Positions 26,764 through 57,773 of a DNA stretch of 57,934 nt are shown here, in pieces. Origin of the DNA: Dehalococcoidia bacterium (GTDB lineage Bacteria > Chloroflexota > Dehalococcoidia > GIF9 > UBA5629). The stretch is taken from positions 1 through 57,934 of the forward strand of contig JAQUQM010000002.1 of assembly GCA_028716085.1 (NCBI GenBank), read 5' to 3'. Below the pieces are notes generated by a model, which was not told where the DNA came from, ran no database searches, and was given only the letters and a program-made list of their open reading frames with translations. The position numbers and the translations under genes were made by a program. The number at the start of each line of letters is the position of its first letter. Position 1 is the first letter of the stretch.

Positions 26764-29700
26764 ATGAATCAAAAACGGATACCACTCTGGCTGGTTGTAG
26801 GTATTATCCTCTTTATCATCGTCCTGATAGCTCTATGGCTCCGCATTGCCCTTCCGTATAAGCAGGTATTTGTCGGTGAGTGGGTGAAGATGACGGGTAT
26901 AGATGCCTATTATTACATGCGGCTGGTGGATAACCTGGTACGACATTTTCCGAACCTGACACAATTCGATCCGTATTATCAATATCCCGGAGGCGTCACT
27001 ACAGGAGGCGCGCCCAATTTCTTTGCCTATTTTATGGCCGCAATCATTTGGTTGCTGGGGCTCGGCTCACCTGACCAGCATATAGTCGATGTAATCGCGG
27101 TATACATACCACCACTCATGGCAGCGCTGACTATTATTCTTGTGTTTTTTATTGGTAAAACCATTGCCGGCAAATGGATGGGTTTATTGGCCGCCGGTCT
27201 GCTGGCAATAATGCCCGGTGAATTTCTAAATCGATCCATGCTTGGTTATACGGACCATCATATAGCCGAAGTCCTTTTTTCAACGATATTCATGCTGTTT
27301 GTGTTTCTGTCTTTAAAGAGTGGGGAGGGAGCTAGTTTTGACGCCATAAAACTGAAACAATGGAAGCTGCTGAACAAACCAATCATATATGGAGCACTGG
27401 CAGGTTTCGGATTGGCTCTGTACACGCTGACATGGGCCGGCGCGTTATTATTCGTACTTGTAGTACTTGTATTTTTAATAATTCAAGTAATAGTTGACCA
27501 TTTGAGGGGGCGAAAAAGCGATTATATAGCATTAGCACTAGGGCCGGCTTTCATAGTTGCAATATTAGGATATATACCATGGGCCAGGGATCTGCGGACA
27601 ATGTTATCGCTGGTCATGGGGTTGGCAGTGACAGTAGTACTGGTGGTACTGTCCGATTATATGCTTAACCGTGGTTACCGACGTTTCTATTACCCTGTAG
27701 CCGTTTTTGCCATGGGTGTAACAGGTGCCCTGGCTTTATATTTGGTCTACCCTGAATTATTGATTTCAACGACGTACCAGATCGCAAGCCTTTTATTCAC
27801 CTGGGGTACGAGCACGACGGTAATGGAGATGCAACCGCTCTTGATGTATCAGGGCGATTTATCTTTTGTTGTGGCGTTTGGTAATTATACGACTGCGTTT
27901 ATATTTTGTTTTGCAGGTTTGGGATTATTAATTTATCAGGCCTTGAGGCGAGATAATCCTGACAGAATTCTCCTGATTATATGGAGTGTAATTGTGCTTT
28001 TGTCCACACTGTCGATGAGGAGATTCGCATATTACTTTGCAGTCAATGTAGCATTGCTTACGGGATATCTGACCTGGATGGTGTTGCAGTTCGCTATGAC
28101 CAGAAAAGAAGAAGCTAAGCCTGCAGCTTTGCCGGTCAAACCAACTGCGAAAAATAGAAAAAAGATAGTAACAAAGCCGCCACCTTCTTCGTCGAAAAAG
28201 CCCTTGATTGTAGCGTTACTTATTTTATTGATTTTACTGCTTGTATACTACCCTAATTTCGGGCCGTTGCCGGACGGGCAGAGACCCTCTATCGATCTGG
28301 CTTCCCGGCCTTTATTTGCACCATCCAATGCATGGTGTGAATCCCTTGATTGGTTGCGCAGTAATTCTCCGGATCCTTTGAGTAGTGCAGATGCATACTA
28401 TGCATATTATCGGACAGGTACGGAATCACAGAATTTCAGCTACACAAAGACCGAGTACGGAGTGTTGAACTGGTGGGACTACGGCTACTGGGTTACGCGA
28501 ATCGGGCGCAGGTTACCTGCATCGAACCCGGGAACAGGTGAATACGGTGAAGCGCGATATTATACTGCTCAGGATGAGTTCAATGCGGGCAGAGCAATCA
28601 ACAACTATGGCACACGTTACGTGATTGTAGATTATGAAATCGCATCTTACAACAGTAAATTTCATGCGCTGGCTTCATTGAGTGGAGAGAATTATTCCCG
28701 ATATTTCGATCTCTTTGTCCAGAAACAGGGTACAAATTATCAGCCTGTTGTTCTCTTCTTCCCCGAGTACTACAGGAGTATGGTTGTCAGATTATATAAC
28801 TTCGATGGCAAAGCTGTGATTCCGCAAACCGTCACGGTAATTAATACTGCAGATAGGGTGGGGCCTCAGGGCAAAATTTACAAAGAGATAATGGACATCA
28901 AGGAATTCGCTACATTTACTGAGGCACAGGAGTTTATCAATAGCAAGAAATCGGATGATTATTTGATTGTTAGTGACGATCCTTTAAAAAGCCCTGTACC
29001 GCTTGCAGAATTAACGCAATATTCACTTCAATATAGCTCCAGTCAAAAGAATAGTTATTTATTCAAACCTATCTCAGATATTAAAATATTCGAATATCGT
29101 AAATTAGCCATACCGATCACTGGAGATTGGGATGGTAGAGGCATAACCAAACTGGGTGAGTGGCAACCTGATGAGAGCTGTTTCCTTCTTGATGTCGACG
29201 GGGACGGTATTTGGAATCCTGATAAAGGTGATGCAAAGCTTGGCCCCTTCGGTTTTTCTACCGATATTCCACTAATTGGTGATTGGACCGGGGATGGAAA
29301 AGATAAGATAGGTGTGTGGAGGCCTTCTGAACTATGTTTTTATCTGGATAGCAACGGTGACGGTGTATGGAATCCCGAAAAGGGAGATAGAAAATTAGGG
29401 CCTTACGGATTGTCGTTTAATAACACACCCGTAGTTGGTGATTGGAATGGCGATGGAAAAGATGAAATTGGTGTATGGGGGAATTCAAGGATTGCGAATA
29501 AAATGACGTTCTATCTGAACATAGCGGGTGATGGAAACTGGAATTCAGAGAACGGGAATTTGATCATAGATCCCTTTGGCAAAAAGGGGAATGTTCCTGT
29601 GATAGGCGATTGGAATAATGACGGAAAAGATGAAATAGGTGTCTGGGACCCTGTCAGCCGGGACTTCTATCTAGACGCAATGGGCAAAGGGGTATGGGAT

Positions 29701-29927: not shown

Positions 29928-32264
29928 ATGAAACAAAAAAGAACAAAGTCGTGGCTGATTGCAGGCGCTATCCTCTTTGCGATCATCCTAATTACATTGT
30001 GGCTCAGGATTGTACTTCCATATCCGCAGGTATTTGTCGATAATTGGGTAAAACTTACGGGCGTGGATGCATATTATTATATGCGGCTGGTGGATAATCT
30101 GGTGCGCCATTTTCCCAATCTGACACAGTTCGATCCGTATTTTCAGTATCCCGGAGGGTGGGATCCAGGCGCCGCCCCAAATTTCTTTGCGTATTTTATG
30201 GGCGCCATTATTTGGATGCTGGGATTAGGAACGACGGATCAACACACTGTAGATGTGATTGCGGTATACATACCGCCGGTATTGGCTGCGCTGACAGTGA
30301 TTGCAGTATTTTTTATTGGCAAGACGATCGGTGGCAAGTGGATGGGATTATTGGCAGCCGGCCTACTGGCTATCATACCAGGCGAGTTTCTCAACCGTTC
30401 CCTGCTGGGCAATACCGATCATCATGTTGCCGAGGTGCTATTCTCATCAGTCGCAATGATGTTCGTTTTTATGTTTATTCACAGCAGTGAAAGGAAAAGC
30501 TTTGCCGGGTTGAGAGAAGAAGGATCATGGAAAGAAACCAAGCTTTTGTTGTATGGGATTCTGGGTGGAGTATTCCTTGGCACCTACCTTCTCACATGGG
30601 CAGGGGCATTATTATTCGTATTGATATTTTTCGTATTTATCGTGGTACAGGCTGTAATAGAACACATGTGCGGCAGATCCAACGATTACCTGGGGTTACT
30701 TGGATTATGTATATTTGGGACGGCATTTGTAGTATATCTGCCCTGGGCAAGAAGTACTTATGTTACGTTATCCTTGATGATAGCAATATTTACATCAATA
30801 TTGCTGGTTATTGTATCTCGCAGCATGCTTAAACTCCGCGTGAAAAGCCTTTATTATCCAGTCGTTATTATCAGCCTGGGAATTATTGGCTGCCTCGGTA
30901 TTTATCTTGTTAATGACAAACTGCTGATCCAATTGATTTCGCGTGTTTTCAGTATATTCATCTGGAGTACAGATACTACTGTTTTTGAGATGCAACCGCT
31001 GTTGTGGTACGGCAAGGAATTCACTTTTTCTGTTGTAATGCAGAATTATGCTACCGGTTTTATCCTGAGTATGTTGGCTCTGGTAATCTTGATATACCGT
31101 GTCATAAAAAATAACAGAGTTGTTGATGTGCTGCTTGCCGTCTGGAGCGTGATTATTCTACTGGCGGCGCTCAGCATGAAAAGGTTTGCCTATTATTTCG
31201 ACCTTAATGTAGCTTTGTTGACAGGTTACCTGTCGTGGATTGTATTAAGCCTGGTTCTAACCGGAAAAGTTCTGCCTGATAAAGATGAGCAAAAAGAAAA
31301 ACAAGATATTGGCACCCTAGGGAAAAAGGCCATAAAACAGAAATCAACACATAAATTCAGTAAAACATATATGTATGTGGCATTACTGATGATATTTCTC
31401 ATTGTTTACTATCCTGACATCGGCCCTTTACCGGGTGGAAGGAAACCGGCGATTGATGTTGCCAGCAAACCTGCGTTCTTACCTGCCGATTCATGGTGTG
31501 AATCCCTGGACTGGCTTAGATTGAATACGCCGGAACCACTTGGAGACGCAGATGACTACTACGGCTTATATCAAGCGCCTCATGAATCCGGGGGATTCAG
31601 TTATCCTTCAACGGCATACGGTGTGCTGTCCTGGTGGGACTACGGGTATCTGATTACAAGGATAGGGAGGAGAATACCGCATTCGAATCCCGGTATAGGA
31701 ACCTATGGCGAAGCGAACTATTTTATTGCCCAGGATCAAGAATCGTCCGGCAAGCTCATGCATGATTGGGGTATTAAATACGTTGTCATAAGCTATGATA
31801 TGACATCGTTTAAAGAGAAATTCTACGCCATGGCGCTTTACGGTGGTCATGAACGAGAGGATTACTATGATTTTTATCTGAAGAAAACAGATGGCGGTTA
31901 TGATGCAGTATTATTCTTTTATCCCGATTATTACCGCACTATGGCAGTAAGATTATTTAACTTTAATGGAGAAGAAGTGGTCCCCGCAGCTACTATGGTT
32001 GTGGATTATTCTATCGGGACGGATAAATCTGGAAAAAGATATAAAGTCATTAATGAGATTAAAAAGTTCGATTATTATTCCGAAGCTATGGATTTTATCG
32101 AACAGCACCAGGGCAATTACCGGATAATTGGAACAGACCCGGGCAACAGCCCTGTCCCGCTTGAAAAACTGAGTCATTATGAATTGGTCTACGGCTCCAG
32201 TCAACAAGCAGAAGTCGGCACGGTTACCACGGCCGGGATAAAGATTTTTGAGTATACAGAATAA
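29928..32264 (+). CDS. STT3/AglB-type oligosaccharyltransferase paralog (GT66-like), short form
   Basis: 778 aa and collinear with the upstream paralog (same N-terminal TGVDAYYYMRLVDNLVRHFPNLTQFDPY block and LGNTDHHVAEV). WWDYGYL at nt 31632-31646. It ends (IKIFEYTE*) exactly where the paralog's repeat extension begins. Starts 8 nt after the upstream stop. Confidence 0.85.
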   Translation: MKQKRTKSWLIAGAILFAIILITLWLRIVLPYPQVFVDNWVKLTGVDAYYYMRLVDNLVRHFPNLTQFDPYFQYPGGWDPGAAPNFFAYFMGAIIWMLGLGTTDQHTVDVIAVYIPPVLAALTVIAVFFIGKTIGGKWMGLLAAGLLAIIPGEFLNRSLLGNTDHHVAEVLFSSVAMMFVFMFIHSSERKSFAGLREEGSWKETKLLLYGILGGVFLGTYLLTWAGALLFVLIFFVFIVVQAVIEHMCGRSNDYLGLLGLCIFGTAFVVYLPWARSTYVTLSLMIAIFTSILLVIVSRSMLKLRVKSLYYPVVIISLGIIGCLGIYLVNDKLLIQLISRVFSIFIWSTDTTVFEMQPLLWYGKEFTFSVVMQNYATGFILSMLALVILIYRVIKNNRVVDVLLAVWSVIILLAALSMKRFAYYFDLNVALLTGYLSWIVLSLVLTGKVLPDKDEQKEKQDIGTLGKKAIKQKSTHKFSKTYMYVALLMIFLIVYYPDIGPLPGGRKPAIDVASKPAFLPADSWCESLDWLRLNTPEPLGDADDYYGLYQAPHESGGFSYPSTAYGVLSWWDYGYLITRIGRRIPHSNPGIGTYGEANYFIAQDQESSGKLMHDWGIKYVVISYDMTSFKEKFYAMALYGGHEREDYYDFYLKKTDGGYDAVLFFYPDYYRTMAVRLFNFNGEEVVPAATMVVDYSIGTDKSGKRYKVINEIKKFDYYSEAMDFIEQHQGNYRIIGTDPGNSPVPLEKLSHYELVYGSSQQAEVGTVTTAGIKIFEYTE

Positions 32265-32280
32265 AGAGGCCTCCAATTTT

Positions 32281-33390
32281 ATGAAATCGGCAATAATCGC
32301 GATGACATTATATCAAACACAGGGGGCGGATCGTCTAACATGGCAGCAAGCTGAAGCGTTATCTCGAAAAGGCGATGAAGTATCAATTTTCACTTTTTCT
32401 ACTAGATTTAATCAGTTGCAGAATATAAAACTTATTAAGATGGGCATGCCCGCAGGATTTTATAGTGAAAAAATCTTTCGCATTTGCCTCCCTGTTAATT
32501 TCATTAAGGCTTATCAATGGGTACCGAGATTAAAGGGCTTCGATATTGTTTATGCTCATGGATATCCCGCCAGCTGGTTTGCATACCTGTCCAAAATATT
32601 CTTCGGTGTTAAATACATTCATTATTTTTATCATATCAATACACCGGGATTTTTCCCCGGCCTTTTCCCCAGGATTTATACAACAATTCAGCTTTTTTTC
32701 GAAAAAATAACTCTCAGTAAAGCTGATGGCGCAATCACAATCAGTGAATTTGCACAGCAGCAACTAACAAAATTTGCCAAGTTGGAGAGTAAAGTAATAT
32801 ATCCTCAAATAGATTGCATCAGGTTCCAACCTGATATAGACAGAAGAAAAATCAGGGATAGATATGATATAGGAGATGCCCCGCTGGTTCTGTTTGTCGG
32901 CGGCATATCACCACAAAAGTGCATTCATTTGCTGATCAATGCTTTTAAAATCTTAAAAATAGATATTCCGAATGCAAGGCTATTAATAGTCGGCAAGTTC
33001 CTCTTTGACAGTTATACTGACTTGTTGAAGCAGATGTCTGATGATTCAGTTGTATTTTCGGGAGAATTGGCTGATGAGGATATACCATACTGCTATGCGG
33101 CCTGTGATGTTTATGTATCGGCAAGTAGATGGGAGGGTTTCAATCTCCCGCTTGCGGAAGCACAGGCTTGCGGAAGGCCGGTTGTAGCCTTTAATATAGG
33201 GCCACATCCTGAAGTTATGATCGATGAAGTCACAGGATTTTTAGTCCCTGAGCTCGATTTACCAGCTATGGCTGAAAAAATTGAACTGCTGCTATGTGAT
33301 GAAAAGCTGAAAAATGCTATGGGGAAAGCTGCTCGGGGGTTTATTACAGAGAAATATTCTGAAAACCAATATCTCAATATTGAATTCTGA
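32281..33390 (+). CDS. Glycosyltransferase family 4 (GT-B, group 1)
   Basis: C-terminal EX7E motif (WEGFNLPLAEAQACGRPVVA) and VGG...K nucleotide-sugar binding region. I prefer the ATG at 32281 (RBS aaagagg 11 nt upstream). The tracked ORF starts at a TTG at 32248 that overlaps the OST gene. Confidence 0.85.
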   Translation: MKSAIIAMTLYQTQGADRLTWQQAEALSRKGDEVSIFTFSTRFNQLQNIKLIKMGMPAGFYSEKIFRICLPVNFIKAYQWVPRLKGFDIVYAHGYPASWFAYLSKIFFGVKYIHYFYHINTPGFFPGLFPRIYTTIQLFFEKITLSKADGAITISEFAQQQLTKFAKLESKVIYPQIDCIRFQPDIDRRKIRDRYDIGDAPLVLFVGGISPQKCIHLLINAFKILKIDIPNARLLIVGKFLFDSYTDLLKQMSDDSVVFSGELADEDIPYCYAACDVYVSASRWEGFNLPLAEAQACGRPVVAFNIGPHPEVMIDEVTGFLVPELDLPAMAEKIELLLCDEKLKNAMGKAARGFITEKYSENQYLNIEF

Positions 33391-33574
33391 TTATTAGAAA
33401 TAGTATCATGCCCAATATCACGGTCCCAAATCGATAGGATACTGGCAGTGCAAGCTGCTCTTAAAGTCCTGTTTCACTTTGGCATACTGATGTGCGGCAA
33501 TTTGATTTTGTTATAATTATACGCCGTATAGTTTATCCTGACGTTTGAAGATTAAGGTTTACGAAGATATTTGT

Positions 33575-34540
33575 ATGCTGCAAAAACTTGCACCGAAGAG
33601 TAAAGGTTCCTTACCCGCCGGTATACTCAGGATTGTGATCAAACCCTTTATTGGAACAGGAATAGGTAGATTTTCCCTTGTAAATAAGATATATCAGTTC
33701 TTCGCCAAGGTTTTTATCATTCCACAGGAAAACCAGCTTGTTACTATTAACGGATACAAGATGTATATCAATTTAGATCGTGAAAAAGGGCTTGACGGCA
33801 TCTCCCAGGAACTTATATTTCACGGTACATATGAGAAATATGCAACGTCTTTGTTCCAGCAGTATGTTAAAAGGGGTATGACTGTGATCACTATAGGGGC
33901 AAATATCGGATATTTCGTGCTGCTGTTCTCATCATTGGTGGGGAAGGATGGCAAGGTATTTGCGTTCGAGCCGGCACCTCAGAACTTCAACTTACTAGTT
34001 CGAAATATTGAACTGAACGGATATGATAACATCGTTGCACTGCAGAAGGCAGTTTCCGATAGGTCAGGAGCAGGGATATTGTATATAGATAAATCTGATC
34101 CGGCGGGGCACAGTCTTTTTCAGGAAGCTACAAACCAGGTAACCGGCGGTAAAGCGGAAACACTTTCTGTTGACATGGTAAGCCTCGACGAATATTTTAA
34201 GAATAATAATATCAGTGCAGATATTATTCAGATGGATATACAAGGTGCAGAACCTCTTGCTGTCAAGGGAATGGAGAATTTAATCTCCAGTAGTAAGGAA
34301 GTGAAGATTTTTACCGAATTCTGGCCGTTTGGATTGGAAAAGAGTGGATTTTCAGCGGAGCAATATTGGACTCAATTGAATCAATTGGGTTTTAAATATA
34401 TTTATCTCATTAATGAACGACACCAAAACCTAGAACCGACGAGCTTAGTGGAAGCAGTTAAACTTTGCAGGGGAAATGTAATTACACCTCCCAGCGCAGT
34501 CAATTTGTTATGTACTGCGACTCCACTGGATTGTATTTAA
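33575..34540 (+). CDS. FkbM-family SAM-dependent methyltransferase
   Basis: Methyltransf_21-type motifs VITIGANIGYF, VFAFEPAPQNF and IQMDIQGAE. ATG at 33575 preferred over the TTG at 33545. Confidence 0.8.
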   Translation: MLQKLAPKSKGSLPAGILRIVIKPFIGTGIGRFSLVNKIYQFFAKVFIIPQENQLVTINGYKMYINLDREKGLDGISQELIFHGTYEKYATSLFQQYVKRGMTVITIGANIGYFVLLFSSLVGKDGKVFAFEPAPQNFNLLVRNIELNGYDNIVALQKAVSDRSGAGILYIDKSDPAGHSLFQEATNQVTGGKAETLSVDMVSLDEYFKNNNISADIIQMDIQGAEPLAVKGMENLISSSKEVKIFTEFWPFGLEKSGFSAEQYWTQLNQLGFKYIYLINERHQNLEPTSLVEAVKLCRGNVITPPSAVNLLCTATPLDCI

Positions 34541-38077: not shown

Positions 38078-38127
38078 CGCTGGCGATAATAATCATATTA
38101 GTGGATACTTGATCCAGGCTGAACTGT

Positions 38128-40895: not shown

Positions 40896-40922
40896 TTATG
40901 ATTCTCAAGTATATTCGAAGCA

Positions 40923-47593: not shown

Positions 47594-47637
47594 AACAAGG
47601 CATTAACTTCAAAAATATTTTATTAACACGTTGCACC

Positions 47638-47668
47638 CAAACGCAGGATACTATAGCGTTTGTTTCGC
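47638..47668 (+). terminator. Weak candidate terminator after the giant gene
   Basis: caaacgc-(11 nt loop)-gcgtttg followed by tttcg; only a 7 bp stem and a short T-run. Confidence 0.3.
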
Positions 47669-47886
47669 TGTCGTACCGGCCAGTGCATTGTATATTATTT
47701 CATTCAAACTAATTATGTAATTCGAATGTGAATGTGTATCTGTAATTACCGGATCGGCCGCTCTGGTTCGATTGGTGAATTTATGCGGATGGGGTAGTGG
47801 TAATAGATCCACAGTAGCAGTTACCTGCCGGGATATTGAGGCATATAGCTTTCCATGAGATTGATTTATAGAGTAAAATATATAAA

Positions 47887-50253: not shown

Positions 50254-51270
50254 ATGCAGGCATTGAGTAACAGGAATCCGTCCGATACAGAAGATAATCT
50301 CGCTACCAGTGAAGAAAATAAAAGATCACTGTCCTGGGGTTTTTTATTACGACTCACTGTTTCTGTAGTGATCCTGGCCTTTATTCTTACCAGGATTGAT
50401 TTCAAGCAATCAATTGAAATTATTTCACATATTAATTTATGGGGCTTTGTATTTGCATTTCTATTAAATTTACTATTCCACTTTTTATTCGTTCTAAGAT
50501 GGCAGGCAGTGCTGTCTTTGTGGGATATAAAGCCGGGATTGGTGCGCCTGTCTATCTGGCATCTTGTGGGAATGTTTTTCAGTTTGTTTCTGCCGACTTC
50601 GGTTGGCGGTGATATTGTCAAAGCCTATTATTTTTCTAAAGATACCAGCCAAACTTCGATATCGTTTCTATCGGTATTCTGGGATAAATATATCGGTTTT
50701 GTTGCATTTATATTTTATGCTGCGCTGACCGCTACTTATGAATTGTTGAAGATTAACGGCATAGAGGTTTATACATTATTGATTTGGGTACTAGTGGCTG
50801 CAATTGCTGTTTTAGCGATACCTGCATCAGGTTTAATTATGAAGCTTGTCGGACTACTGGGTAAGCGGCTTGTTAGGTTACAGAACATCCTGCTTCTTGT
50901 GCATAGTTCTTTTAAAATGATATTACGCAATTATCGAACTGCGTTGCTCGTTTTCACCTATGTTTTAATAGCACTGCTTCTAAATGTAGCGGTCAATTAT
51001 GTGCTGATATATTCTATGGGTCTTTCCACCGATTTAATACCTCTTCTGATACTGATTCCTGTGATAACAGCTATCAATATGCTGCCGATTTCGATTAGCG
51101 GATTGGGCGTCAGGGAAGCCGCATTTATTTTGCTTTTTGCGCAGGTAGGCTTCACCAATGATCAATCATTTGCATTATCAATACTCAATTTTATTCTGCT
51201 CGTACTAGCCAGCCTGCCTGGCGGCCTTATATATTTAATGGTTAAACCAAAGAAGGACGTATCGCAATAA
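50254..51270 (+). CDS. UPF0104 / lysylphosphatidylglycerol-synthase-TM-like membrane protein (flippase-like domain)
   Basis: 338 aa, about 8 TM segments, with the LPTSVGGDIVKAYY motif characteristic of the LPG_synthase_TM/UPF0104 family. Commonly found next to GT2 genes. Confidence 0.7.
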   Translation: MQALSNRNPSDTEDNLATSEENKRSLSWGFLLRLTVSVVILAFILTRIDFKQSIEIISHINLWGFVFAFLLNLLFHFLFVLRWQAVLSLWDIKPGLVRLSIWHLVGMFFSLFLPTSVGGDIVKAYYFSKDTSQTSISFLSVFWDKYIGFVAFIFYAALTATYELLKINGIEVYTLLIWVLVAAIAVLAIPASGLIMKLVGLLGKRLVRLQNILLLVHSSFKMILRNYRTALLVFTYVLIALLLNVAVNYVLIYSMGLSTDLIPLLILIPVITAINMLPISISGLGVREAAFILLFAQVGFTNDQSFALSILNFILLVLASLPGGLIYLMVKPKKDVSQ

Positions 51271-51408: not shown

Positions 51409-52443
51409 GTGAACCGTTATCATGTGCCTGATTTAGATGATGTCAGACTGAAAAATGAAGGTGGAGAATTCCCCGCCATGGTAATTGTTCCGGTATCTTA
51501 TGTGTGCAATTCAAGGTGTCCCAACTGCGCATACACCAACTCTGATATCAGGGACAGCTATAATGATACACCGTTTATGCCGGATGAGCTTTTTAAAAGA
51601 ATCAGTGATGAATGCGGCAAATACAACGCCCTCATACGAGTCTCGGGTGGTGGCGAACCACTAATCAGCAAACATATTATTGACCAAATTGAATATGCCA
51701 AGGGAGTGGGAGCCAGAATCGGGCTTATTACAAATGGTTCACTCCTTACTCCCGAGAGGGTTGATAGACTTTTAAAGGTAAACACAGATGCAATTGAGAT
51801 TAGTGCTGATGCTGGGGACAAGGATACGTATGCAAAAGTCAGGCCCGGACTGAACTTCGATAAATTAGTCAGGAATGTTAAATACCTGGTGAATAAGAGA
51901 AATGAACTCAAAAGCACAAGCAGGATCATAGTCAGCATCATCAATCAGAAAGAGCTCCAGGGGAAACTTGAATCCGCCGTTGCGTACTGGAATAAAATCG
52001 TTGACCACGTACAGATTCGTAAATACCTTACATGGAGCATATGCGATCCATCGCAATCTGCGGATCCTACGCCCTACATTCCTGAATTGCCTGTCAGGGT
52101 TCCCTGCCCTTTCCCGTTTGAGCGTGTTATGATCGATGTAAGGGGCAAAATATCCTTTTGCGCCTATGATATCAGGTTCGAAACCGATTTTGGCAACGTG
52201 CATAAGATATCTATAAAGCAGGCCTGGCAGGGTGAGAAATTCAAGAAATGGCGGCAACTGCTGCTTGAAGGGAAATACGAGGAGATACCCGTTTGCAACA
52301 AATGCCCCGATTGGAAGTACAGGTCGTGGCATTACAATTACTGGAATATATTGAACAAAGCTGATAAAAAGAAGGAAGCGATATCAGACTCGCCTGGTGA
52401 GTTTGAGGATGAGGAATTTGATAATTTGCCACTCGACTTATGA
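51409..52443 (+). CDS. Radical SAM/SPASM(twitch)-domain protein
   Basis: GTG start with RBS gaggtg; CNSRCPNCAY (CxxxCxxC); SGGGEPL. C-terminal VPCPFPFERVMIDVRGKISFCAYD...QAWQG...IPVCNKCPDW module. 344 aa. Confidence 0.85.
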   Translation: MNRYHVPDLDDVRLKNEGGEFPAMVIVPVSYVCNSRCPNCAYTNSDIRDSYNDTPFMPDELFKRISDECGKYNALIRVSGGGEPLISKHIIDQIEYAKGVGARIGLITNGSLLTPERVDRLLKVNTDAIEISADAGDKDTYAKVRPGLNFDKLVRNVKYLVNKRNELKSTSRIIVSIINQKELQGKLESAVAYWNKIVDHVQIRKYLTWSICDPSQSADPTPYIPELPVRVPCPFPFERVMIDVRGKISFCAYDIRFETDFGNVHKISIKQAWQGEKFKKWRQLLLEGKYEEIPVCNKCPDWKYRSWHYNYWNILNKADKKKEAISDSPGEFEDEEFDNLPLDL

Positions 52444-52569: not shown

Positions 52570-54438
52570 ATGTGCGGTATTTGCGGTATATTCGGAAGTC
52601 CGGAACTGGATACTCTGGCTGATATGGTCAGGGTGCTCGCGCACCGTGGGCCTGATGATGAACACATTGTAAACGGTAAGCATTTCTGCATAGGTGCCAG
52701 GCGCCTGAGCATAATCGATCTTGAAGGTGGCAGGCAACCACTGTCCAATGAGGATGGAACAATCTGGGTGGCGCAGAACGGCGAGATTTACAATTTCCCC
52801 CCGCTGATGGAAAGCCTCAGTTCCAAAGGACACACTTTCAGATCCAGGTCTGATACTGAGGTTGTTGCACATCTTTATGAGGAAAGGGGTGATGAGTTTG
52901 TCAACTTCTTGAACGGCATGTATGCCATAGCAGTCTGGGATGATAAAAAAAGAAAAGGCTTGCTGGTACGAGATAGGGTGGGTAAAAAACCGCTCTATTA
53001 CCTGGCAAAGGATGATAAGCTATATTTTGCATCAGAGATAAAGTCCCTTTTACAGGTTCCCGGTTTTACTAAAAGAATAAATTATGAAGCACTGTACTAT
53101 TATCTCAGCTATAAAAACACCCCATGCCCGCTTACGATATTTCAGGATATATTCATGCTGCCCCCCGCGACCGCGATGCATTTCTACCCGGGTAAAAGAC
53201 TCCGATTATACAAGTATTGGCAACCTAATTTTGCAGGCGCAAATGCTAAACTGGGTATATCCGAAGAAGAAACTGTTGATGAATTAATAAGTGTATTGAA
53301 AGGTGCTGTAAGCCGCAGGTTGATAAGTGATGTTCCCATAGGATTCTTTCTGAGCGGCGGATTGGATTCAGGGCTTACAACGGCATTAGCGGCAGAGATT
53401 GCAGGTAAGAAAATTAATACTTTCACGCTGACTTATGCCGGAGATGATACACTTCCGGGCAAGCAGCTGGACAGAGATAACGCGAGAAAAATCTCTCAAA
53501 TATATGGGACCGATCATCATGAAGAAATGGTTGATTTCCCAAATTTCCCCGATGAGTTTCCCAGGATAATAAGGTCATTCGACGAGCCTTTTTGCGGTGT
53601 CATATCCACTTATTTTCTATCGCGCTTGATCAGTAAGCATGTTAAGACCGCGATAACCGGTGATGGTTCGGACGAGCTGTTTGGCAGTTATCTTTCTCAC
53701 AGGCTTGCTTTCCCTGTTTACAATTATATTCAGTATCAGAATACAGGAGATGCAAAATATAAGGATTTCCAGTTTTTTCAGAATGATATGGGATACCTGG
53801 CCGGCATTGCCGAACCACAGGATTGGAAATGGCGATACAAGCTGTTGGTGTTCAGCGATGAAGAAAAGCGCACACTACTTGCGCCGGAAATGGTTGAAAG
53901 CACCAGTAATTACGATACCGGGCGGCATTTAGAAAAATATTTCCAAAATCTAACTGCGACGGATCCGTTGAACCGCATGCTTGAAGCGGAGTTCCACTTT
54001 CAGCTTCCTGATCAGGTTCTGGCTTTTTCCGACAGGCTTTCCATGGCACATTCACTGGAATTACGTACAGCTTATCTCGATAAGGAATTTGTAGAACTGG
54101 CTGCACGCATTCCCGGCAGGTTAAAGATAAAAGACGGAGAGACCAAGTATATATTGAAGAAAGCTGCTTTACGATATCTGCCCCGCGAAATCATTTACAG
54201 AAAAAAGGAAGGATTTGTAATGCCTGTAACTGAGTGGCTTTACCATAATTTAAAGGGATACGTGCAGGCTATCTTGAGTCAGCAATCGCTATCATGTCAC
54301 AATCTGTTCAATTATACTTATGTTCAGGGGTTGATTGATAAATTCTATTCGCAAGACTATGATTACAGACTGGGCAACAAATTATTGTCTCTCATAGCGT
54401 TCCAGGTATGGCATGATTTGTATTTGAAAAATGGTTGA
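52570..54438 (+). CDS. asnB: Asparagine synthase (glutamine-hydrolysing)-family amidotransferase
   Basis: N-terminal MCGICGIFG (Ntn Cys2 glutaminase) and PP-loop FFLSGGLDSG; 622 aa. In this context it is probably a sugar-carboxylate amidotransferase rather than housekeeping AsnB. Confidence 0.88.
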   Translation: MCGICGIFGSPELDTLADMVRVLAHRGPDDEHIVNGKHFCIGARRLSIIDLEGGRQPLSNEDGTIWVAQNGEIYNFPPLMESLSSKGHTFRSRSDTEVVAHLYEERGDEFVNFLNGMYAIAVWDDKKRKGLLVRDRVGKKPLYYLAKDDKLYFASEIKSLLQVPGFTKRINYEALYYYLSYKNTPCPLTIFQDIFMLPPATAMHFYPGKRLRLYKYWQPNFAGANAKLGISEEETVDELISVLKGAVSRRLISDVPIGFFLSGGLDSGLTTALAAEIAGKKINTFTLTYAGDDTLPGKQLDRDNARKISQIYGTDHHEEMVDFPNFPDEFPRIIRSFDEPFCGVISTYFLSRLISKHVKTAITGDGSDELFGSYLSHRLAFPVYNYIQYQNTGDAKYKDFQFFQNDMGYLAGIAEPQDWKWRYKLLVFSDEEKRTLLAPEMVESTSNYDTGRHLEKYFQNLTATDPLNRMLEAEFHFQLPDQVLAFSDRLSMAHSLELRTAYLDKEFVELAARIPGRLKIKDGETKYILKKAALRYLPREIIYRKKEGFVMPVTEWLYHNLKGYVQAILSQQSLSCHNLFNYTYVQGLIDKFYSQDYDYRLGNKLLSLIAFQVWHDLYLKNG

Positions 54439-55126
54439 TAAGAAGCAAGTCGTAGTATTACAACCCGGGTACCTGCCCTGGTTGGGCTTTTTCGATCAAA
54501 TGTATAAAAGCGACATCTTTGTGATTTACGATGATGTTCAATTTGATAAGCACGGCTGGCGTAATCGTAATCGTATTAAAACGGCGCAGGGAATTCAGTG
54601 GCTGACAGTTCCCGTGCTCACTAAAGGCCGTGATAAACCACTTATTAATGAGGTGCTAATAAATAATAACTCAGACTGGCGAAAAGCCCATTTTAGTTCT
54701 ATTAAGCAGAACTATTCCAGGACTCCTTTTTTTTCTACCTATATCAATGTTTTTGAGGAGATATATTCACAGGAGTGGGAGTACCTTATTGATTTGGATG
54801 TCACGTTTATACGGGTTTTGATGGACAAACTCAATTTAAACCGTGAGATATTATTCTCTTCGAAACTCGAAGTGCCTGAACACAAAACACACCGCCTGAT
54901 AAATATATGTGTCAAACTGGGGGCTACAGACTATTTGACAGGAAAAGCAGCAGAAGATTATATTGATGAGTCTCTTTTTAATGAGAAAAATATTAGGCTG
55001 CAATATCACAACTACACCCATCCTAGTTACAGTCAAATGTACGGTGATTTTATCCCATTTTTATCAGTCGTTGATTTACTCTTTAATCATGGACCTCAAA
55101 GCCTGGAGATCCTAATTAATAAATAA
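54431..55126 (+). CDS. WbqC-family protein
   Basis: VVLQPGYLPWLGFFDQMYKSDIFVIYDDVQFDKHGWRNRNRIK matches the WbqC-like family N-terminal signature; 231 aa; overlaps the asnB stop by 8 nt. Confidence 0.75.
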   Translation: MVDKKQVVVLQPGYLPWLGFFDQMYKSDIFVIYDDVQFDKHGWRNRNRIKTAQGIQWLTVPVLTKGRDKPLINEVLINNNSDWRKAHFSSIKQNYSRTPFFSTYINVFEEIYSQEWEYLIDLDVTFIRVLMDKLNLNREILFSSKLEVPEHKTHRLINICVKLGATDYLTGKAAEDYIDESLFNEKNIRLQYHNYTHPSYSQMYGDFIPFLSVVDLLFNHGPQSLEILINK

Positions 55127-55145: not shown

Positions 55146-56162
55146 ATGAAAACAATTCTTATCACCGGCGGCGCAGGATTTATGGGCAGTAACTTCGTGC
55201 GATATCTGCTAAAAAAATACCCTGATTACAAACTAATCGTTCTTGATGCTTTAACTTATGCAGGATGCATGGAAAATGTACCACGGGTTCCCAATGTTAG
55301 GTTCTGGTTTGGAAATGTTCGCAACGCCGAGCTTGTCGATACGTTGATTTCGCAGTGCGATGTAGTTGTTCATTTTGCCGCCGAGACCCATGTAACCCGT
55401 TCTATTTATGATAACCTTTTGTTTTTTGAGACGGATGTACTGGGTACACAGTGTATAGCCAACGCTGTACTGAAGAATAACAGCAATATTGAACGATTTA
55501 TCCATATTTCTACATCGGAAGTGTATGGCGCTGCCAGGTTTGATGTTATGGATGAGGAGCACCCGTTGATGCCGGCAAGCCCCTATGCCAGCGCCAAGGC
55601 CGGCGCAGATAGACTGGTCTACTCGTATTGGCATACGTATGGAATACCGGCGGTTATTATCCGGCCTTTTAATAACTACGGGCCATACCAGCACCTGGAG
55701 AAGGCAGTTCCGCGTTTCATTACTTCATGTATTCTCAACGAGCCGATTAACATTCACGGCGATGGGAAAATGAGCCGTGACTGGTTATTCGTGGAAGATT
55801 TGTGTAATGCCCTTGATCTTGCTTTGCAGGGTGACATCAACGAGCTCAAGGGGGAAGTCATCAATGTCGGCACCGGCAAGAGTATTGAGATCGGAACTCT
55901 GGCAGAGATGATTGTTGACCTGATGGGAAGCTCGCGCTCATTGCTAAGGTATGTAGGAGATCGTCCCGGGCAGGTAATGCGTCACAGATCATCAACGGAA
56001 AAAGCTCAGAAACTGCTGGAATGGCATTATTCCGTTCCTATCGAGGAAGGCTTAAAGAGAAGTATAGACTGGTATAAAAAAAATCATAGTTGGTGGGAGA
56101 AACAATTATGGATGAGGTCGGTACCCATAATAACCAAGGATGGAAAAATTGAAGAGCATTAA
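55146..56162 (+). CDS. rfbB: dTDP-glucose 4,6-dehydratase-like NDP-sugar dehydratase (extended SDR)
   Basis: ITGGAGFMGSNFVRYLL, LDALTYAG, STSEVYG, SPYASAKAGADRL (YxxxK) and FNNYGPYQHLEKAVP; 338 aa. Confidence 0.8.
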   Translation: MKTILITGGAGFMGSNFVRYLLKKYPDYKLIVLDALTYAGCMENVPRVPNVRFWFGNVRNAELVDTLISQCDVVVHFAAETHVTRSIYDNLLFFETDVLGTQCIANAVLKNNSNIERFIHISTSEVYGAARFDVMDEEHPLMPASPYASAKAGADRLVYSYWHTYGIPAVIIRPFNNYGPYQHLEKAVPRFITSCILNEPINIHGDGKMSRDWLFVEDLCNALDLALQGDINELKGEVINVGTGKSIEIGTLAEMIVDLMGSSRSLLRYVGDRPGQVMRHRSSTEKAQKLLEWHYSVPIEEGLKRSIDWYKKNHSWWEKQLWMRSVPIITKDGKIEEH

Positions 56163-56279: not shown

Positions 56280-57773
56280 TTACTGCAAATTGGCCAGGGC
56301 AGCCGGCTTGTCATTATCAACCGGCTTCCCACGATTAAATAAATGGTCTATAAACACTGCACTCAAGATAATATAAGCCAGGCTGCCTGGCAAGAGGCTT
56401 TTGCCAACACCTGACACAAAACAAACAATATGGACTGCAGACAGATAGACCACTGGAGTAATAATTAAGACAACTTTGCGCCAATCTTTGCGAAGAACCC
56501 ATATACCTCCTACACTAAAAAGTACAGGGAAAACGACAAATACCGCAGCCAGACTCCAATAAAACGCCTGATAAGGGTAGGAAATTACAGTTTGAAGAAA
56601 CGTACCATTTCCCCACGCAGATAGAAAGTTTGCCCACGTCACCTGACGCCCTTCGCATTCATACCAGTTCTGATAATCCGGGCAAAGCGGTTGTATCCCG
56701 AGGCCATTATAGTAGAAAAGAGTGCGCGGCAACCTCAGAAGCAATGCTTTTAACCACCACAGAGGGTGTTCAGTGATAGTGGTTATCACCTTATCCTTAA
56801 ATACCAAATCATATTCCGGAGTTCCAAACTTGACATCGTATCCAAGTTCTTTTTTTGCTAATTCCCATGCATAAGCCTCATTAAATATCGCTCCTGCCGG
56901 ATTATCTTGAAACTCACCGAATCCTACCCAGATACCAGCCCATGTCCCAACGCGCATGTTGGGGCTTAATACGCCTGTCACGTAGTAGTTTCTGACAATC
57001 CAGGGAACAGTCATTACCATGACAACAAGCATCATAGCCGCAGTGATTTTGATCGTATTAGCTAATTGATGTCCAATTTCACGTTTGCGCAGCTTGTAAA
57101 TCAGGAGGGCAAGGCCGTAAAGGCAGGGGAGAAACAAGGCTGTTGGCTGAAAATAGCAGCTCACTCCTATAAATAAAGACGATAACAGATAGAAAACCAA
57201 CTTGTCATGCAGTACACCTTTAATAAAGAAATATAATGAAACCAGGATAAAAAACGGCATTAAAGCGTCATGAATGACAAATGTAGACAGGGTAGCTATA
57301 GGAAGGAATACCGCATATGTGAATGATGCTATCAATCCAACTCTTTTGGAAAAGAGCTGTCTGCATAACAGGAAAATAATCAAGCAGCCAAATGAATCAA
57401 GGATAGCTTGAAGTATACGTGTATAAATATATCTGTATTCGCCGGATAATGAAAAAGTTAATGCGACAAGGGAGCTTGTTCCGGGTGGTAATCCATAATA
57501 CGGTGTAAAATTTTCTTTGTCTGGCGGTGGAACGTCCTCCATTTCGACGAGGCGATTAGTCTTATACATCCGGTCTATGATAGTTGCTAGATACTCGTCA
57601 TCAACTACATACCCCCGCCCTGCGGACAAATTTCTGGCAGCTTCGCCTATCTGGTAGGTTAATCCTATTTCCGGAGAATTACGTGTATAGTAAATAATAC
57701 CTACACGTATAAAGAGAGCTATAAAATATACTATACAAAGAAAAATCGTTATAGACCGATTGCTTTTCAGCAT
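56280..57773 (-). CDS. GT-C fold membrane glycosyltransferase (ArnT/PMT_2, GT39/GT83-like)
   Basis: 497 aa polytopic membrane protein. First extracytoplasmic loop contains the acidic VVDDEY motif. The architecture (about 11-13 TM plus loops) resembles polyprenol-phosphate-sugar dependent glycosyltransferases. Strong RBS aggagg. The call rests on topology and motif only. Confidence 0.55.
   Translation of the reverse strand: MLKSNRSITIFLCIVYFIALFIRVGIIYYTRNSPEIGLTYQIGEAARNLSAGRGYVVDDEYLATIIDRMYKTNRLVEMEDVPPPDKENFTPYYGLPPGTSSLVALTFSLSGEYRYIYTRILQAILDSFGCLIIFLLCRQLFSKRVGLIASFTYAVFLPIATLSTFVIHDALMPFFILVSLYFFIKGVLHDKLVFYLLSSLFIGVSCYFQPTALFLPCLYGLALLIYKLRKREIGHQLANTIKITAAMMLVVMVMTVPWIVRNYYVTGVLSPNMRVGTWAGIWVGFGEFQDNPAGAIFNEAYAWELAKKELGYDVKFGTPEYDLVFKDKVITTITEHPLWWLKALLLRLPRTLFYYNGLGIQPLCPDYQNWYECEGRQVTWANFLSAWGNGTFLQTVISYPYQAFYWSLAAVFVVFPVLFSVGGIWVLRKDWRKVVLIITPVVYLSAVHIVCFVSGVGKSLLPGSLAYIILSAVFIDHLFNRGKPVDNDKPAALANLQ

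Follow-up and report, generated by a model that had tools for sequence, protein, structure and literature searches.

A probable surface-glycan island headed by two AglB-type oligosaccharyltransferases in a Dehalococcoidales bacterium

We analyzed a stretch of 57,934 nucleotides (the window) from a Dehalococcoidales bacterium (Chloroflexota, Dehalococcoidia). Positions 26764-57773 (~31 kb) probably form the first part of a surface-glycan island that spans at least 41 kb and is anchored by two AglB paralogues, and we infer that its glycan is transferred to asparagine. In the best reading, the island is an uncharacterized variant of a Wzx-dependent, AglB-linked N-glycan system. What we establish is its gene content, the intact catalytic motifs and AglB fold of the oligosaccharyltransferases (OSTs), the bacterial context, the fixed place of the OST, and the mosaic make-up of the cassette behind it.

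An earlier note, made from the sequence alone, had proposed a complete protein N-glycosylation system in an AT-rich block. All 20 open reading frames that it listed are present, and the domains that it named were recovered with Pfam and NCBIfam (Table 1). The lower GC content of the island was borne out (about 0.42, with 0.527 at 1-13000), but a sharp boundary at 26764 was not (GC is 0.459 at 13001-26763). Within the island, the gene for the 1805-aa protein has a GC content of 0.514, and no intergenic gap is above about 340 bp. "Complete" was wrong because the island continues beyond the window: an overlapping NCBI contig extends it past 57773 by at least 10 kb, with a GC content of 0.40.

Table 1. 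Genes of the island within the window, with domain and family matches
Gene product	Position	Strand	Matches
OST1, AglB-type, long form, 1051 aa	26764..29919	+	STT3 + AglB_core
OST2, AglB-type, short form, 778 aa	29928..32264	+	STT3 + AglB_core
GT4 (GT-B) glycosyltransferase	32248..33390	+	Glycos_transf_1 2e-36, Glyco_transf_4 2e-15
FkbM-family SAM methyltransferase 1	33545..34540	+	PF05050 2e-16; TIGR01444 96 bits
FkbM-family SAM methyltransferase 2	34635..35573	+	PF05050 7e-25; TIGR01444 117 bits
rSAM1, radical SAM with N-terminal twitch/SPASM-like domain	35622..36875	+	SPASM 17-82, Radical_SAM 134-295
Membrane-anchored SGNH/GDSL hydrolase	36923..38077	+	Lipase_GDSL_2 2e-10
Wzx/MOP-family flippase (predicted)	38128..39699	-	Polysacc_synt 5e-19, Polysacc_synt_3, MatE
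GDP-mannose 4,6-dehydratase (GMD) paralogue a	39837..40895	-	PF16363 2e-122
GDP-mannose 4,6-dehydratase (GMD) paralogue b	40923..41942	-	PF16363 2e-114
Secreted multidomain C25-family (gingipain-like) cysteine peptidase, 1805 aa	42176..47593	+	Propeptide_C25 1e-11
Radical SAM/SPASM enzyme 2	47887..48804	+	Radical_SAM 9e-19, SPASM 4e-8
Hexapeptide-repeat acyltransferase, EpsC/CysE-like	48762..49400	+	Hexapep 3e-8
Short soluble GT2, polyprenyl-phosphate sugar synthase type (ArnC/GtrB/DPMS-like)	49493..50212	+	Glycos_transf_2 7e-20
LPG_synthase_TM/UPF0104 flippase-like membrane protein	50254..51270	+	PF03706 1e-35
Radical SAM/SPASM enzyme 3	51409..52443	+	Radical_SAM 2e-18, SPASM 6e-12
AsnB-family glutamine-dependent amidotransferase	52570..54438	+	Asn_synthase 3e-79, GATase_7
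WbqC-like protein	54431..55126	+	PF08889 2e-81
RfbB-like NDP-hexose 4,6-dehydratase	55146..56162	+	TIGR01181 332 bits
GT-C, PMT_2, ArnT/PMT-like	56280..57773	-	PMT_2 1e-12, PMT 8e-5

Both OSTs pass the TIGR04154 cutoff of 450 bits (597 bits for OST1 and 564 bits for OST2), and OST1 matches the Pfam domains STT3 (6e-27) and AglB_core (9e-21). The best match of OST1 by both sequence and fold is AglB-L from Archaeoglobus fulgidus (3WAJ/3WAK/5GMY/7E9S). In the PDB sequence search, 3WAJ matched at 1.5e-46, and PglB gave no match at 1e-3 or better. The AF2 model of OST1 (pLDDT 83.8, pTM 0.79) is closest to AglB 7E9S (E = 1e-27), followed by eukaryotic STT3 (1e-17 to 6e-12) and PglB (2.5e-11). On sequence and predicted fold, the OSTs are AglB-type, not PglB-type. 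In OST1, a multi-helix membrane domain at the N-terminus is followed by an AglB core and then by five C-terminal FG-GAP-like repeats (787-1051). The first two parts also occur in AglB-L, as do the D47, DxH, TIXE-like, WWDYG, and DK-type motifs. AglB-L has no counterpart of the ~265-residue FG-GAP repeat domain, and identity is only 29.5% (over 583 columns). OST2 is 52% identical to OST1, branches apart from it in a distance tree (first 70 matches, midpoint-rooted), and is 85% identical to its counterpart in a sister strain; by these comparisons, it is an old paralogue. The two OST genes are separated by 8 nt.

As the earlier note had proposed, we compared synteny in relatives. In relatives whose OSTs are 44-87% identical to those in the window, the OST adjoins the cobalamin-salvage (cob/btu) operon at the same place, and in five of six related neighborhoods it is directly followed by Wzx, GT4, sugar-nucleotide, or GT2/GT-C genes. 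In the sister strain and in another relative (L083), the gene immediately 3' of the OST(s) is Wzx. In L087, housekeeping genes follow the OST, so adjacency to glycan genes is not obligatory. Compared to the sister strain, the OSTs are 85-87% identical and the flanking genes 78-90%, versus just 38% for Wzx, 25% for GT4, and 45% for FkbM. By these identities, the OST is the conserved gene, and the glycan genes behind it are mosaic, in a serotype-like pattern.

Several genes in the window could assemble and export a glycan. GT4 has no transmembrane segment by hydrophobicity and probably extends the lipid-linked glycan while this faces the cytoplasm. The Wzx-like protein has many hydrophobic TM-like stretches and is predicted to be the flippase for the lipid-linked oligosaccharide. 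The GT2 also lacks a TM segment; its best PDB matches are ArnC (9e-9), GtrB (1e-8), and Pyrococcus furiosus DPMS (7e-8), and its NCBIfam matches (PgfS, ArnC, Dol-P hexose transferase) are weak and far below cutoffs. Just 41 nt 3' of it is the UPF0104 gene, whose product has several hydrophobic TM-like stretches and matches TIGR00374 ("flippase-like domain," 84 bits versus a cutoff of 43). The GT-C also has several such stretches, has no PDB sequence match, and probably works on the outer face with a polyprenyl-P-sugar as donor. The GT2 is a candidate for making this donor; alternatively, it is a candidate AglJ-like initiating enzyme. Similar modules (ArnC/ArnEF/ArnT-like) lie in the 10-kb extension: a GT2 of 311 residues that is PgfS/ArnC-like over its full length, an ArnF/E-like EamA protein of 120 residues, and a PMT_2 protein of 499 residues. 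Altogether, two more GT-C (PMT_2) paralogues lie within 10 kb past the window. No glycosyltransferase of the window or the extension reaches the NCBIfam equivalog cutoff of any Agl or Pgl enzyme.

Most of the remaining genes would tailor sugars. GMD a scores 402 bits against TIGR01472 (cutoff 415), matches 2Z1M (1.5e-119) and 1RPN (5e-117), and keeps the GxTGxxG, S-T-x-E, and YxxxK motifs; GMD b is 63% identical to it and also keeps the catalytic motifs, and the sister strain retains the pair. The RfbB-like dehydratase is just under the TIGR01181 cutoff (365). The hexapeptide acyltransferase scores 134 bits against NF041874 (EpsC; cutoff 150). AsnB scores 441 bits against TIGR01536 (cutoff 267), and its end overlaps the start of the WbqC gene by 8 nt. 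The SGNH hydrolase has a hydrophobic N-terminal segment (1-31) and probably faces outwards. CxxxCxxC is present in all three radical SAM enzymes, at residue 138 in rSAM1 (84 bits versus a cutoff of 170 for NF033640, N_Twi_rSAM) and at residue 30 in enzyme 2. The best PDB matches are GDGT-MAS (2e-12) and BtrN (2e-8) for enzyme 2, and BtrN (2e-10) and the cytosylglucuronate decarboxylase BlsE (4e-7) for enzyme 3, which is 91% identical to its sister-strain counterpart. For WbqC, the SGNH protein, and all three radical SAM enzymes, any assigned function is a guess.

The absences in the earlier note held up: Pfam recovered neither a phosphoglycosyltransferase (PF00953 or PF02397) nor an NTP_transferase in the window. 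The dehydratase partners are also absent from the window, but about 8 kb outside it is a WecE-type 4-aminotransferase (621 bits versus a cutoff of 435), a likely partner of the RfbB-like dehydratase. The flanking sequence, which the note suggested searching, did not supply an initiating transferase in the 26 kb upstream or the 10 kb downstream. Nor did PF00953 or PF02397 (WecA/PglC-type) occur in the sister-strain extension or the six related OST neighborhoods.

The lack of an initiating transferase linked to the OST fits another explanation, in which N-glycans are not the main product of the island. It would mainly make a Wzx-dependent surface polysaccharide, a glycolipid, or O-glycans attached by its PMT_2/GT-C enzymes, and the AglB genes, as neighbors of a glycan-gene hot spot, would obtain their donor elsewhere or draw on just part of the island. 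O-linked precedents are actinobacterial Pmt and the Streptococcus mutans Pgf system. Three to four PMT_2 GT-Cs, together with ArnC/PgfS-like GT2s and ArnE/F-like flippases, dominate the right-hand part of the island, the C25 protein has Ser/Thr/Pro-rich linkers, and in L087 the OST stays beside cob/btu even without glycan genes. The single GT4 and single GT2 in the window are a small set for building a complex oligosaccharide, which counts against the N-glycan reading. However, OST2 overlaps the co-oriented GT4 by 17 nt, Wzx is adjacent to the OST(s) in two relatives, and in the window Pfam gave no domain match for a Wzy polymerase, a chain-length regulator, or an O-antigen ligase. Also, the GT2/GT-C modules of Haloferax act together with AglB, not instead of it (PMC3871713). 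We consider this explanation less likely. The glycan-assembly block is physically tied, and probably also transcriptionally tied, to two intact STT3-family OSTs. Because of this tie, and because glycan genes follow the OST in five of six neighborhoods, the most economical reading is still that a flipped, tailored, lipid-linked glycan is transferred to Asn. This part of the earlier proposal stands, but its "complete" system does not.

The central 1805-aa protein had been described as sequon-rich. Its 23 N-X-S/T sequons are high in absolute number only (shuffling the protein gave 22.7 +/- 4.0), and no D/E-X-N-X-S/T sites were found in it. By its domains and conserved residues, it is a secreted C25-family cysteine peptidase, with an N-terminal signal-like segment, a C25 propeptide, a catalytic domain (H509/C549), and an array of fn3-like and choice-of-anchor-R domains (three choice_anch_R matches in NCBIfam) that includes a 1053-nt tandem repeat in near-identical copies. 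PF01364 was not reached in this protein at E <= 0.01. There are 868 homologues at E <= 1e-5; among the 120 listed, which are 49-63% identical, most carry PF01364 and several are named "C25 family cysteine peptidase." All 16 homologues that were aligned keep H509, G510, and C549. A role as a dedicated glycoprotein is not obvious, and the peptidase may be either a passenger or a substrate.

Alternatively, the AglB-like proteins might not be protein N-OSTs in this lineage: they might hydrolyze lipid-linked oligosaccharides to free oligosaccharides, or use a non-protein or non-Asn acceptor. The long form OST1 carries an unusual FG-GAP propeller, and full-text literature searches found no paper characterizing the AglB family in bacteria. 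Against this, the sequon-binding and catalytic residues of AglB/PglB/STT3 are conserved: OST1 keeps D47, D164-x-H166, E355, WWDYG (570-574), and the DK-type K632. Across 49 homologues, D47, D164/H166, E355, D572/G574, and K632 are invariant, and W570, W571, and Y573 are at least 90% conserved. OST2 retains WWDYG and the other catalytic motifs. To our knowledge, every characterized STT3-family member is an N-OST, and we consider this alternative improbable.

The host itself is bacterial. Close OST homologues with a named source are all from Chloroflexi or Dehalococcoidia MAGs, and Chloroflexota account for 50 of 79 genome loci; these came from many independent binning studies, on contigs of up to 759 kb. 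Homologues of the C25 peptidase often come from Methanothrix and ANME. That the window is a euryarchaeal fragment or chimeric mis-assembly (an ordinary archaeal agl cluster), as these peptidases and the NCBIfam name of TIGR04154, which ties the OST family to the archaeosortase A system, might suggest, is very improbable given the cob/btu-to-OST junction in more than eight independently assembled Dehalococcoidales contigs (one of 528 kb), the bacterial-type CobU, BtuFCD, cobalamin riboswitch, and LuxR-type and hybrid histidine kinase regulators, and the mere 21-25% identity of archaeal loci from a pattern-based genome scan.

The precedent for the architecture is the Agl pathway of Haloferax volcanii (PMC3871713), for which we compared the aglB-anchored cluster (AglJ/G/I/E, AglB, AglD-AglR-AglS, AglP, AglM, AglF). 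In both, an AglB-type OST heads glycosyltransferases, a Wzx-like flippase, methyltransferases, and sugar-nucleotide enzymes. Haloferax does not need a WecA/PglC-type enzyme because AglJ (GT2) starts on dolichol phosphate. The island differs from the Haloferax cluster in its bacterial host, in its pair of paralogous OSTs, of which one ends in an FG-GAP propeller, and in having several GT-Cs as well as three radical SAM/SPASM enzymes; its window glycosyltransferases are also below Agl equivalog cutoffs (46.6 bits versus 375 for NF041391; 43.8 versus 325 for TIGR04182). Like Campylobacter pgl, this is a bacterial locus in which an STT3-family OST and GT4 occur with a flippase and with tailoring of amino/acetyl sugars; L083 also carries PglD_N and DegT genes. 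Unlike pgl, the island has OSTs that are not PglB-type and that have the DK-type instead of the MI-type motif; Wzx takes the place of the ABC flippase PglK, PglC is missing, and the secreted C25 protein lacks the extended sequon. The sets of GT2, small flippase, and GT-C (GT2 + UPF0104 + PMT_2 in the window; GT2 + EamA + PMT_2 beyond) resemble ArnC/ArnE-F/ArnT, GtrA/B/V, and S. mutans Pgf, but all are below equivalog cutoffs and sit inside an OST-anchored island. The island resembles Wzx-dependent O-antigen and capsule loci in its low GC and in the non-orthologous exchange of Wzx and glycosyltransferase genes between close strains with conserved flanks; unlike those loci, it has no Wzy, Wzz, or WaaL-type genes and has an N-OST in the ligase's place. 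Finally, the N-terminal 660 aa of the 1805-aa protein carry the propeptide and conserved His/Cys pair of gingipain/C25 peptidases, but its C-terminal array, with near-identical 351-aa repeats, is lineage-specific.

What we infer is in what order the steps run, which chemistry and lipid carrier the glycan has, which proteins accept it, and that Asn-linked glycosylation takes place at all. Nucleotide sugars would first be tailored in the cytoplasm, where the two GMDs would make GDP-4-keto-6-deoxymannose derivatives and the RfbB-like dehydratase, with WecE, would make a dTDP-4-amino-4,6-dideoxyhexose; the sugars would then undergo acylation, methylation, amidation, and radical-SAM reactions. GT4 and GT2 enzymes would build the glycan on a polyprenyl phosphate carrier, Wzx would flip it, and OST1 and/or OST2 would transfer it en bloc to Asn in N-X-S/T sequons of secreted and envelope proteins. 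On the outer face, the GT2/flippase-like/GT-C modules (one in the window and more beyond) probably add further single sugars from polyprenyl-P-monosaccharides. This would resemble ArnC/ArnEF/ArnT and Haloferax AglD/AglR/AglS: in Haloferax, a GT2 charges a lipid phosphate with one sugar, and a flippase-type protein and a GT-C add that sugar outside the cell (PMC3871713).

Full-text searches found no paper describing archaeal-style N-glycosylation in this bacterial group. The most interesting aspect of the island, which the earlier note did not recognize, is that its host is bacterial and its OSTs are of the archaeal AglB type. An AglB pair at the head of a strain-variable, sugar-building island points to archaeal-style N-glycosylation in these bacteria.

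Both of the oligosaccharyltransferases (OSTs) that open the glycan island, OST1 and OST2, belong to the AglB type. They score 597.3 and 564.5 bits against the whole-protein model TIGR04154 of NCBIfam (cutoff 450), whose title is [quoted passage not shown] That title implies co-occurrence with a sorting system, but we detected neither an exosortase or archaeosortase domain nor a PGF-CTERM tail in the window or in related loci. In a sequence search of the PDB, the nearest solved structure to OST1 was AglB-L from A. fulgidus (1.5e-46, 29.5% identity over 583 columns); human STT3A matched at only 5e-5, and no PglB matched at 1e-3 or better. We also modelled OST1 with AlphaFold (AF2) from 49 homologues (pLDDT 83.8, pTM 0.79). 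The predicted GT-C fold, a multi-helix membrane domain with a periplasmic core, is nearer in Foldseek to AglB (1e-27, TMt 0.68) than to STT3 (1e-17 to 6e-12) or PglB (2.5e-11, TMt 0.57). With no PglB match by sequence and PglB ranked below both AglB and STT3 by fold, we rejected the idea of a PglB-type bacterial N-OST.

The OST motifs are found in both paralogues and line up with those of A. fulgidus AglB-L. In OST1 numbering, these are the first acidic residue (D47), the D-x-H motif (D164/H166), a glutamate in EL5 (E355, within the TIXE-like "TVMEMQP"), WWDYG (570-574), and the DK-type lysine (K632). Across the 49 homologues, D47, D164, H166, E355, D572, G574, and K632 are invariant, and W570, W571, and Y573 are conserved in at least 90%. 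Because the catalytic and sequon-binding residues are so well kept, the OSTs are neither pseudogenes nor obviously inactive. The earlier note, which proposed a complete N-glycosylation island, held that decay of these genes would count against it; both are intact.

OST1 and OST2 are 52% identical, and their places on two distinct deep branches of a distance tree mark them as old paralogues. OST1 also carries five FG-GAP-like repeats (residues 787-1051); the model shows them with confidence as a series of beta-sheets that would fit a propeller. The same long form is seen in about 20 homologue clusters. Paralogue expansion is extreme in Dehalococcoidia bacterium SPRUCE 159, where each of four tandem OSTs is 41-43% identical to OST1.

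Positions of features in the window and in other loci. Positions without a locus name refer to the window. L001 is the 10-kb extension past the window end, L088 is the sister-strain contig, and L007, L083, and L085 are OST loci in other genomes.
Feature	Position	Strand	Remarks
LuxR/GerE-type response regulator	254-898	+	
Stand-alone receiver domain	1928-2323	+	
AAA ATPase (weak MoxR-domain match) and VWA (CoxE-like) protein	7162-9216	-	adjoin surface-protein genes
978-aa Sortilin/BNR-type secreted protein	9353-12289	-	C-terminal plain TM anchor; 7 sequons
739-aa He_PIG secreted protein	12341-14560	-	2 sequons; syntenic in L083 and L085
PAS hybrid histidine kinase	14748-17090		
Cobalamin salvage/BtuFCD operon	17115-26427	-	forms a stable junction with the divergent OST
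Cobalamin riboswitch RF00174	26517-26641	-	31.6 bits, right at the gathering threshold; precedes btuF and the cob salvage operon; left edge of the island, so that the OST1 promoter has no more than about 120 nt
OST1	26764-29919	+	1051 aa, long form
OST2	29928-32264	+	778 aa, short form
rSAM1	35622-36875	+	SPASM/twitch-like Cys-rich domain N-terminal to the SAM core
GMDa	39837-40895		
GMDb	40923-41942		63% identical to GMDa
C25 peptidase gene	42176-47593	+	1805 aa
Repeat within the C25 gene	44447-46852		three copies, 1053-nt period, 97-100% DNA identity, 351-aa units
rSAM2	47887-48804		
GT2	49493-50212		short
UPF0104 "flippase-like" protein (LPG_synthase_TM)	50254-51270		41 nt after GT2
rSAM3	51409-52443		
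PMT_2 GT-C	56280-57773	-	
PMT_2 protein, N-terminal 231 aa	L001 1-693	-	
Four tandem AglB-type OSTs	L007 (JBEKCL010000053.1) 1841-11816	two +, two -	
DUF2206 membrane protein	L083 20506-22821		near OST
DUF2206 membrane protein	L088 14236-16653		in island extension

The AglB_core matches first suggested that the window might be archaeal. This was ruled out by homologue names, genome titles, and bacterial-type surroundings: CobU/S/T/A/Q/D cobalamin salvage, BtuFCD, the cobalamin riboswitch, a hybrid PAS histidine kinase, and a LuxR-type response regulator. Among the 120 homologues listed for OST1, all those with a named source are from Chloroflexi or Dehalococcoidia MAGs. A scan of GTDB species genomes gave 408 relatives, and we kept 79 loci: 40 from Dehalococcoid* genomes, 10 from other Chloroflexota, 14 from other bacteria (Planctomycetota, Acidobacteriota, one Chlorobiaceae, and one unclassified), and 15 from archaea. 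The archaeal loci reach only 21-25% identity, which is a lower bound on archaeal relatedness because the two peptide patterns used as the query were drawn from the bacterial clade. AglB-like OSTs may be more widespread in bacteria than expected. Homologues with 25-33% identity occur in Phycisphaerae, Planctomycetaceae, Acidobacteriota (Bryobacterales, Vicinamibacteria, and Solibacteraceae), and one Chlorobiaceae MAG (loci L037, L039-L041, L043, L046, L055-L058, and L061-L065).

In relatives whose OSTs are 44-87% identical, the OST lies at the same place, transcribed divergently from the cob/btu operon (L002/L083, L005, L008, L036, L081/82, and L084-L087, all from Dehalococcoidales MAGs). What follows the OST varies: Wzx, two GT4s, PglD_N, DegT, a GT4, and DUF2206 in L083; GT87, DUF362, LPG_synthase_TM, and UbiA in L084; GT2, GT87, a methyltransferase, EamA, and an rml-like set in L085; an NTP-transferase, RmlC/B/D, Wzx, GMD, DegT, and a GT4 in L086; and housekeeping genes in L087. 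The large membrane proteins with DUF2206 (771-805 aa) recur in L083 and L088. In the sister strain, the flanking genes are 78-90% identical, as are OST1 (87%) and OST2 (85%), and identity remains high for GMDa (79%), GMDb (74%), the rSAM3-AsnB-WbqC-RfbB segment (84-96%), and the GT-C (81%). Wzx, the GT4, and FkbM are only 38%, 25%, and 45% identical, a pattern of non-orthologous replacement that is typical of serotype-determining glycan loci. The archaeal-type AglB looks like a positionally conserved gene across this Dehalococcoidales MAG clade that is joined, in the window, to a hypervariable glycan cassette. A scan for tRNA genes came back empty, which leaves no tRNA-linked integration signal, and a scan of 37900-48000 for promoters and terminators was uninformative.

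ORF listing and Pfam/NCBIfam scans bear out the earlier note's gene inventory for 26764-57773 in full. Besides two tandem STT3 + AglB_core proteins, the island encodes a GT4, two FkbM methyltransferases, a Wzx-type flippase, three radical SAM/SPASM proteins (each with CxxxCxxC), an SGNH protein with an N-terminal anchor, two GMD paralogues, a hexapeptide transferase, AsnB, WbqC, an RfbB-like dehydratase, a short GT2, a UPF0104 protein, and a PMT_2 GT-C (which has no match in a PDB sequence search). The description of this region as an AT-rich block is only partly right: GC is about 0.42 for the island and 0.527 for 1-13000, but 13001-26763 is already at 0.459 and the 1805-aa gene is at 0.514. 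Family assignments suggest that the glycan would contain 6-deoxy and 4-amino-6-deoxy hexoses that bear methyl, acyl, and amide groups. Since the nearest matches of rSAM2 and rSAM3, though weak, are BtrN, BlsE, and GDGT-MAS, a radical-SAM step of oxidation or decarboxylation is also possible. rSAM1 resembles NF033640 ("N_Twi_rSAM"), but at 84 bits versus a cutoff of 170, and it has no counterpart in the sister-strain segment between OST2 and GMD. GMDa matches GMD structures at 1e-119 and RMD (2PK3) at only 8e-29. An RMD-type reductase role for the second GMD (for GDP-D-rhamnose) is unsupported, as the S-T-x-E dehydratase motif is kept in both paralogues; a bifunctional GMD like 1RPN is possible.

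The island does not stop at the window end. The last window gene has an identical copy on JAQTMT010000005.1 (GCA_028714195.1), which overlaps the window end with one mismatch and then runs on past it. In these 10 kb (GC 0.40), a full-length PgfS/ArnC-like GT2 (GT2-311), an ArnF/ArnE-like EamA protein (EamA-120; ArnF 2e-13), and a PMT_2 GT-C (PMT_2-499) are adjacent, followed by a second ArnC-like GT2, three methyltransferases, a WecE-type transaminase, and another PMT_2. A metagenome scan for further extension recovered only the sister-strain contig, on which UDP-glucose dehydrogenase, DUF2206, another PMT_2, and a methyltransferase come next; upstream, MBOAT and DUF1574 take the place of some genes.

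As the earlier note reported, the window itself has no phosphoglycosyltransferase, nucleotidyltransferase, or dehydratase partner, and all intergenic gaps in the island are under about 340 bp, so no gene of that size is hidden. The transaminase scores 621 bits (cutoff 435) as a dTDP-4-amino-4,6-dideoxyhexose transaminase, and therefore the aminotransferase partner of the RfbB-like dehydratase lies just outside the window. We saw no NTP_transferase in the window or the 10-kb extension, and no 3,5-epimerase or 4-reductase in this strain. The pathway in the window is not complete, contrary to the earlier note's suggestion: activated-sugar supply is only partial.

Annotating the flanks, which that note recommended, yielded no initiating transferase of the WecA/PglC type in the extension or the sister-strain contig; PF00953 (WecA/AglH) and PF02397 (PglC) are also absent from the window and from related OST neighbourhoods. 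Two explanations remain. The initiating enzyme may be encoded elsewhere, or one of the ArnC/GtrB/DPMS-like GT2s may start assembly on polyprenyl monophosphate, by analogy with AglJ, which starts on dolichol phosphate in Haloferax (PMC3871713). The second explanation draws on family knowledge, and these GT2s score far below the cutoffs for AglJ and for Dol-P hexose transferases.

Two OSTs, Wzx, the GT4, and the GT2 place an OST, a flippase for lipid-linked oligosaccharide, and cytoplasmic glycosyltransferases in one locus, and this combination recurs in relatives. GT2, UPF0104, and PMT_2 in the window also form a three-component set with the architecture of ArnC/EF/T, Gtr, and AglD/R/S (a GT2 synthase, a small or flippase-like membrane protein, and a GT-C), as do the adjacent GT2-311, EamA-120, and PMT_2-499 of the extension. 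All of them score under the equivalog cutoffs, so what they share with these systems is architecture and not orthology. In the main rival reading, which we consider unlikely, a large part of the island would work through the PMT_2 enzymes in O-linked, polysaccharide, or lipid glycosylation. We think that N-glycosylation is the probable function: a tailored oligosaccharide would be made on polyprenyl phosphate with Wzx as flippase, the AglB paralogues would move it to asparagine, and the GT2/flippase/GT-C modules would then attach sugars at the outer face.

The 1805-aa secreted protein, which the earlier note placed at the centre of the island as a giant sequon-rich protein, is better described as a peptidase. 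Its N-terminus resembles a signal peptide. A search with residues 1-660 gave 868 homologues at E ≤ 1e-5. Identity is 49-63% for the 120 that were listed; several of these bear the name "C25 family cysteine peptidase," most have PF01364, and their sources include Methanothrix, ANME, Desulfobacteraceae, Lentisphaerae, and Dehalococcoidia. The C25 propeptide PF08126 is present (44.6 bits, cutoff 22), and H509, G510, and C549 are invariant in the aligned homologues. PF01364 itself was not reached directly in Pfam, and searching the PDB by sequence with the first 756 residues yielded no helpful match. By propeptide, His/Cys pair, and homology, we assign the protein to family C25, which replaces the idea of an S-layer protein or a dedicated glycoprotein. 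Past residue 660 there is an array of fn3-like and choice-of-anchor-R domains, and there is no C-terminal anchor. The repeat in this gene has either expanded recently or lies in a stretch that is assembly-prone; its copy number in the real genome is uncertain. The gene's GC is like that of the genome core and unlike that of the island, and the gene at the corresponding position in the sister strain codes for another signal peptide (a comparison over 16 codons only).

Sequons are not enriched in this protein: it has 23 N-X-S/T sites, versus 22.7 ± 4.0 in shuffles, and no D/E-X-N-X-S/T sites. They do cluster at 658-675. Active OSTs could well glycosylate this protein, but nothing singles it out as a dedicated substrate. 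Since the S-layer protein proposed for Dehalococcoides has BNR repeats, the 978-aa and 739-aa secreted proteins may be envelope proteins and OST acceptors.

To our knowledge, textbooks confine OST-dependent N-glycosylation among bacteria to the PglB of Campylobacterota and of some Desulfobacterota. The architecture here is that of known AglB- or PglB-anchored loci and so is not categorically new. What differs is the bacterial host clade, the AglB type of an OST that is positionally conserved in related Dehalococcoidales, the FG-GAP-fused paralogue, and the cassette rich in radical SAM and GT-C enzymes. Our full-text literature search found no paper tying Dehalococcoidia or Chloroflexi to an OST, and as most subscription journals lie outside it, an earlier description is possible. 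The sole general precedent we found is Lombard 2016, which mentions a few bacterial homologues of AglB that nest among those of euryarchaea.

A broader reading, which we offer as a tentative and rather doubtful one, is that Dehalococcoidia make envelope glycoproteins by a vertically inherited, archaea-derived AglB pathway. It would be GT2-initiated on polyprenyl monophosphate, in the euryarchaeal style rather than that of WecA/PglC; the conserved OST would serve a serotype-like, fast-exchanging glycan cassette; and the FG-GAP-propeller paralogue would pick distinct acceptors or dock to the S-layer. In that case, bacteria would have a second major form of N-glycosylation, independent of PglB.

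If the OSTs are active, they would provide new enzymes of simple N-X-S/T specificity, along with new sugar-tailoring enzymes, for glycoengineering. They would be one more archaeal envelope or motility trait transferred into Chloroflexota, like the archaellum, which moved from Methanotecta into Dehalococcoidia and Anaerolineae (PMC12488501, a 2025 paper that does not mention AglB). Cultured Dehalococcoides and SAR202 reportedly have an S-layer and no peptidoglycan (PMC11994032), and active OSTs would help to explain how such bacteria decorate their surface.
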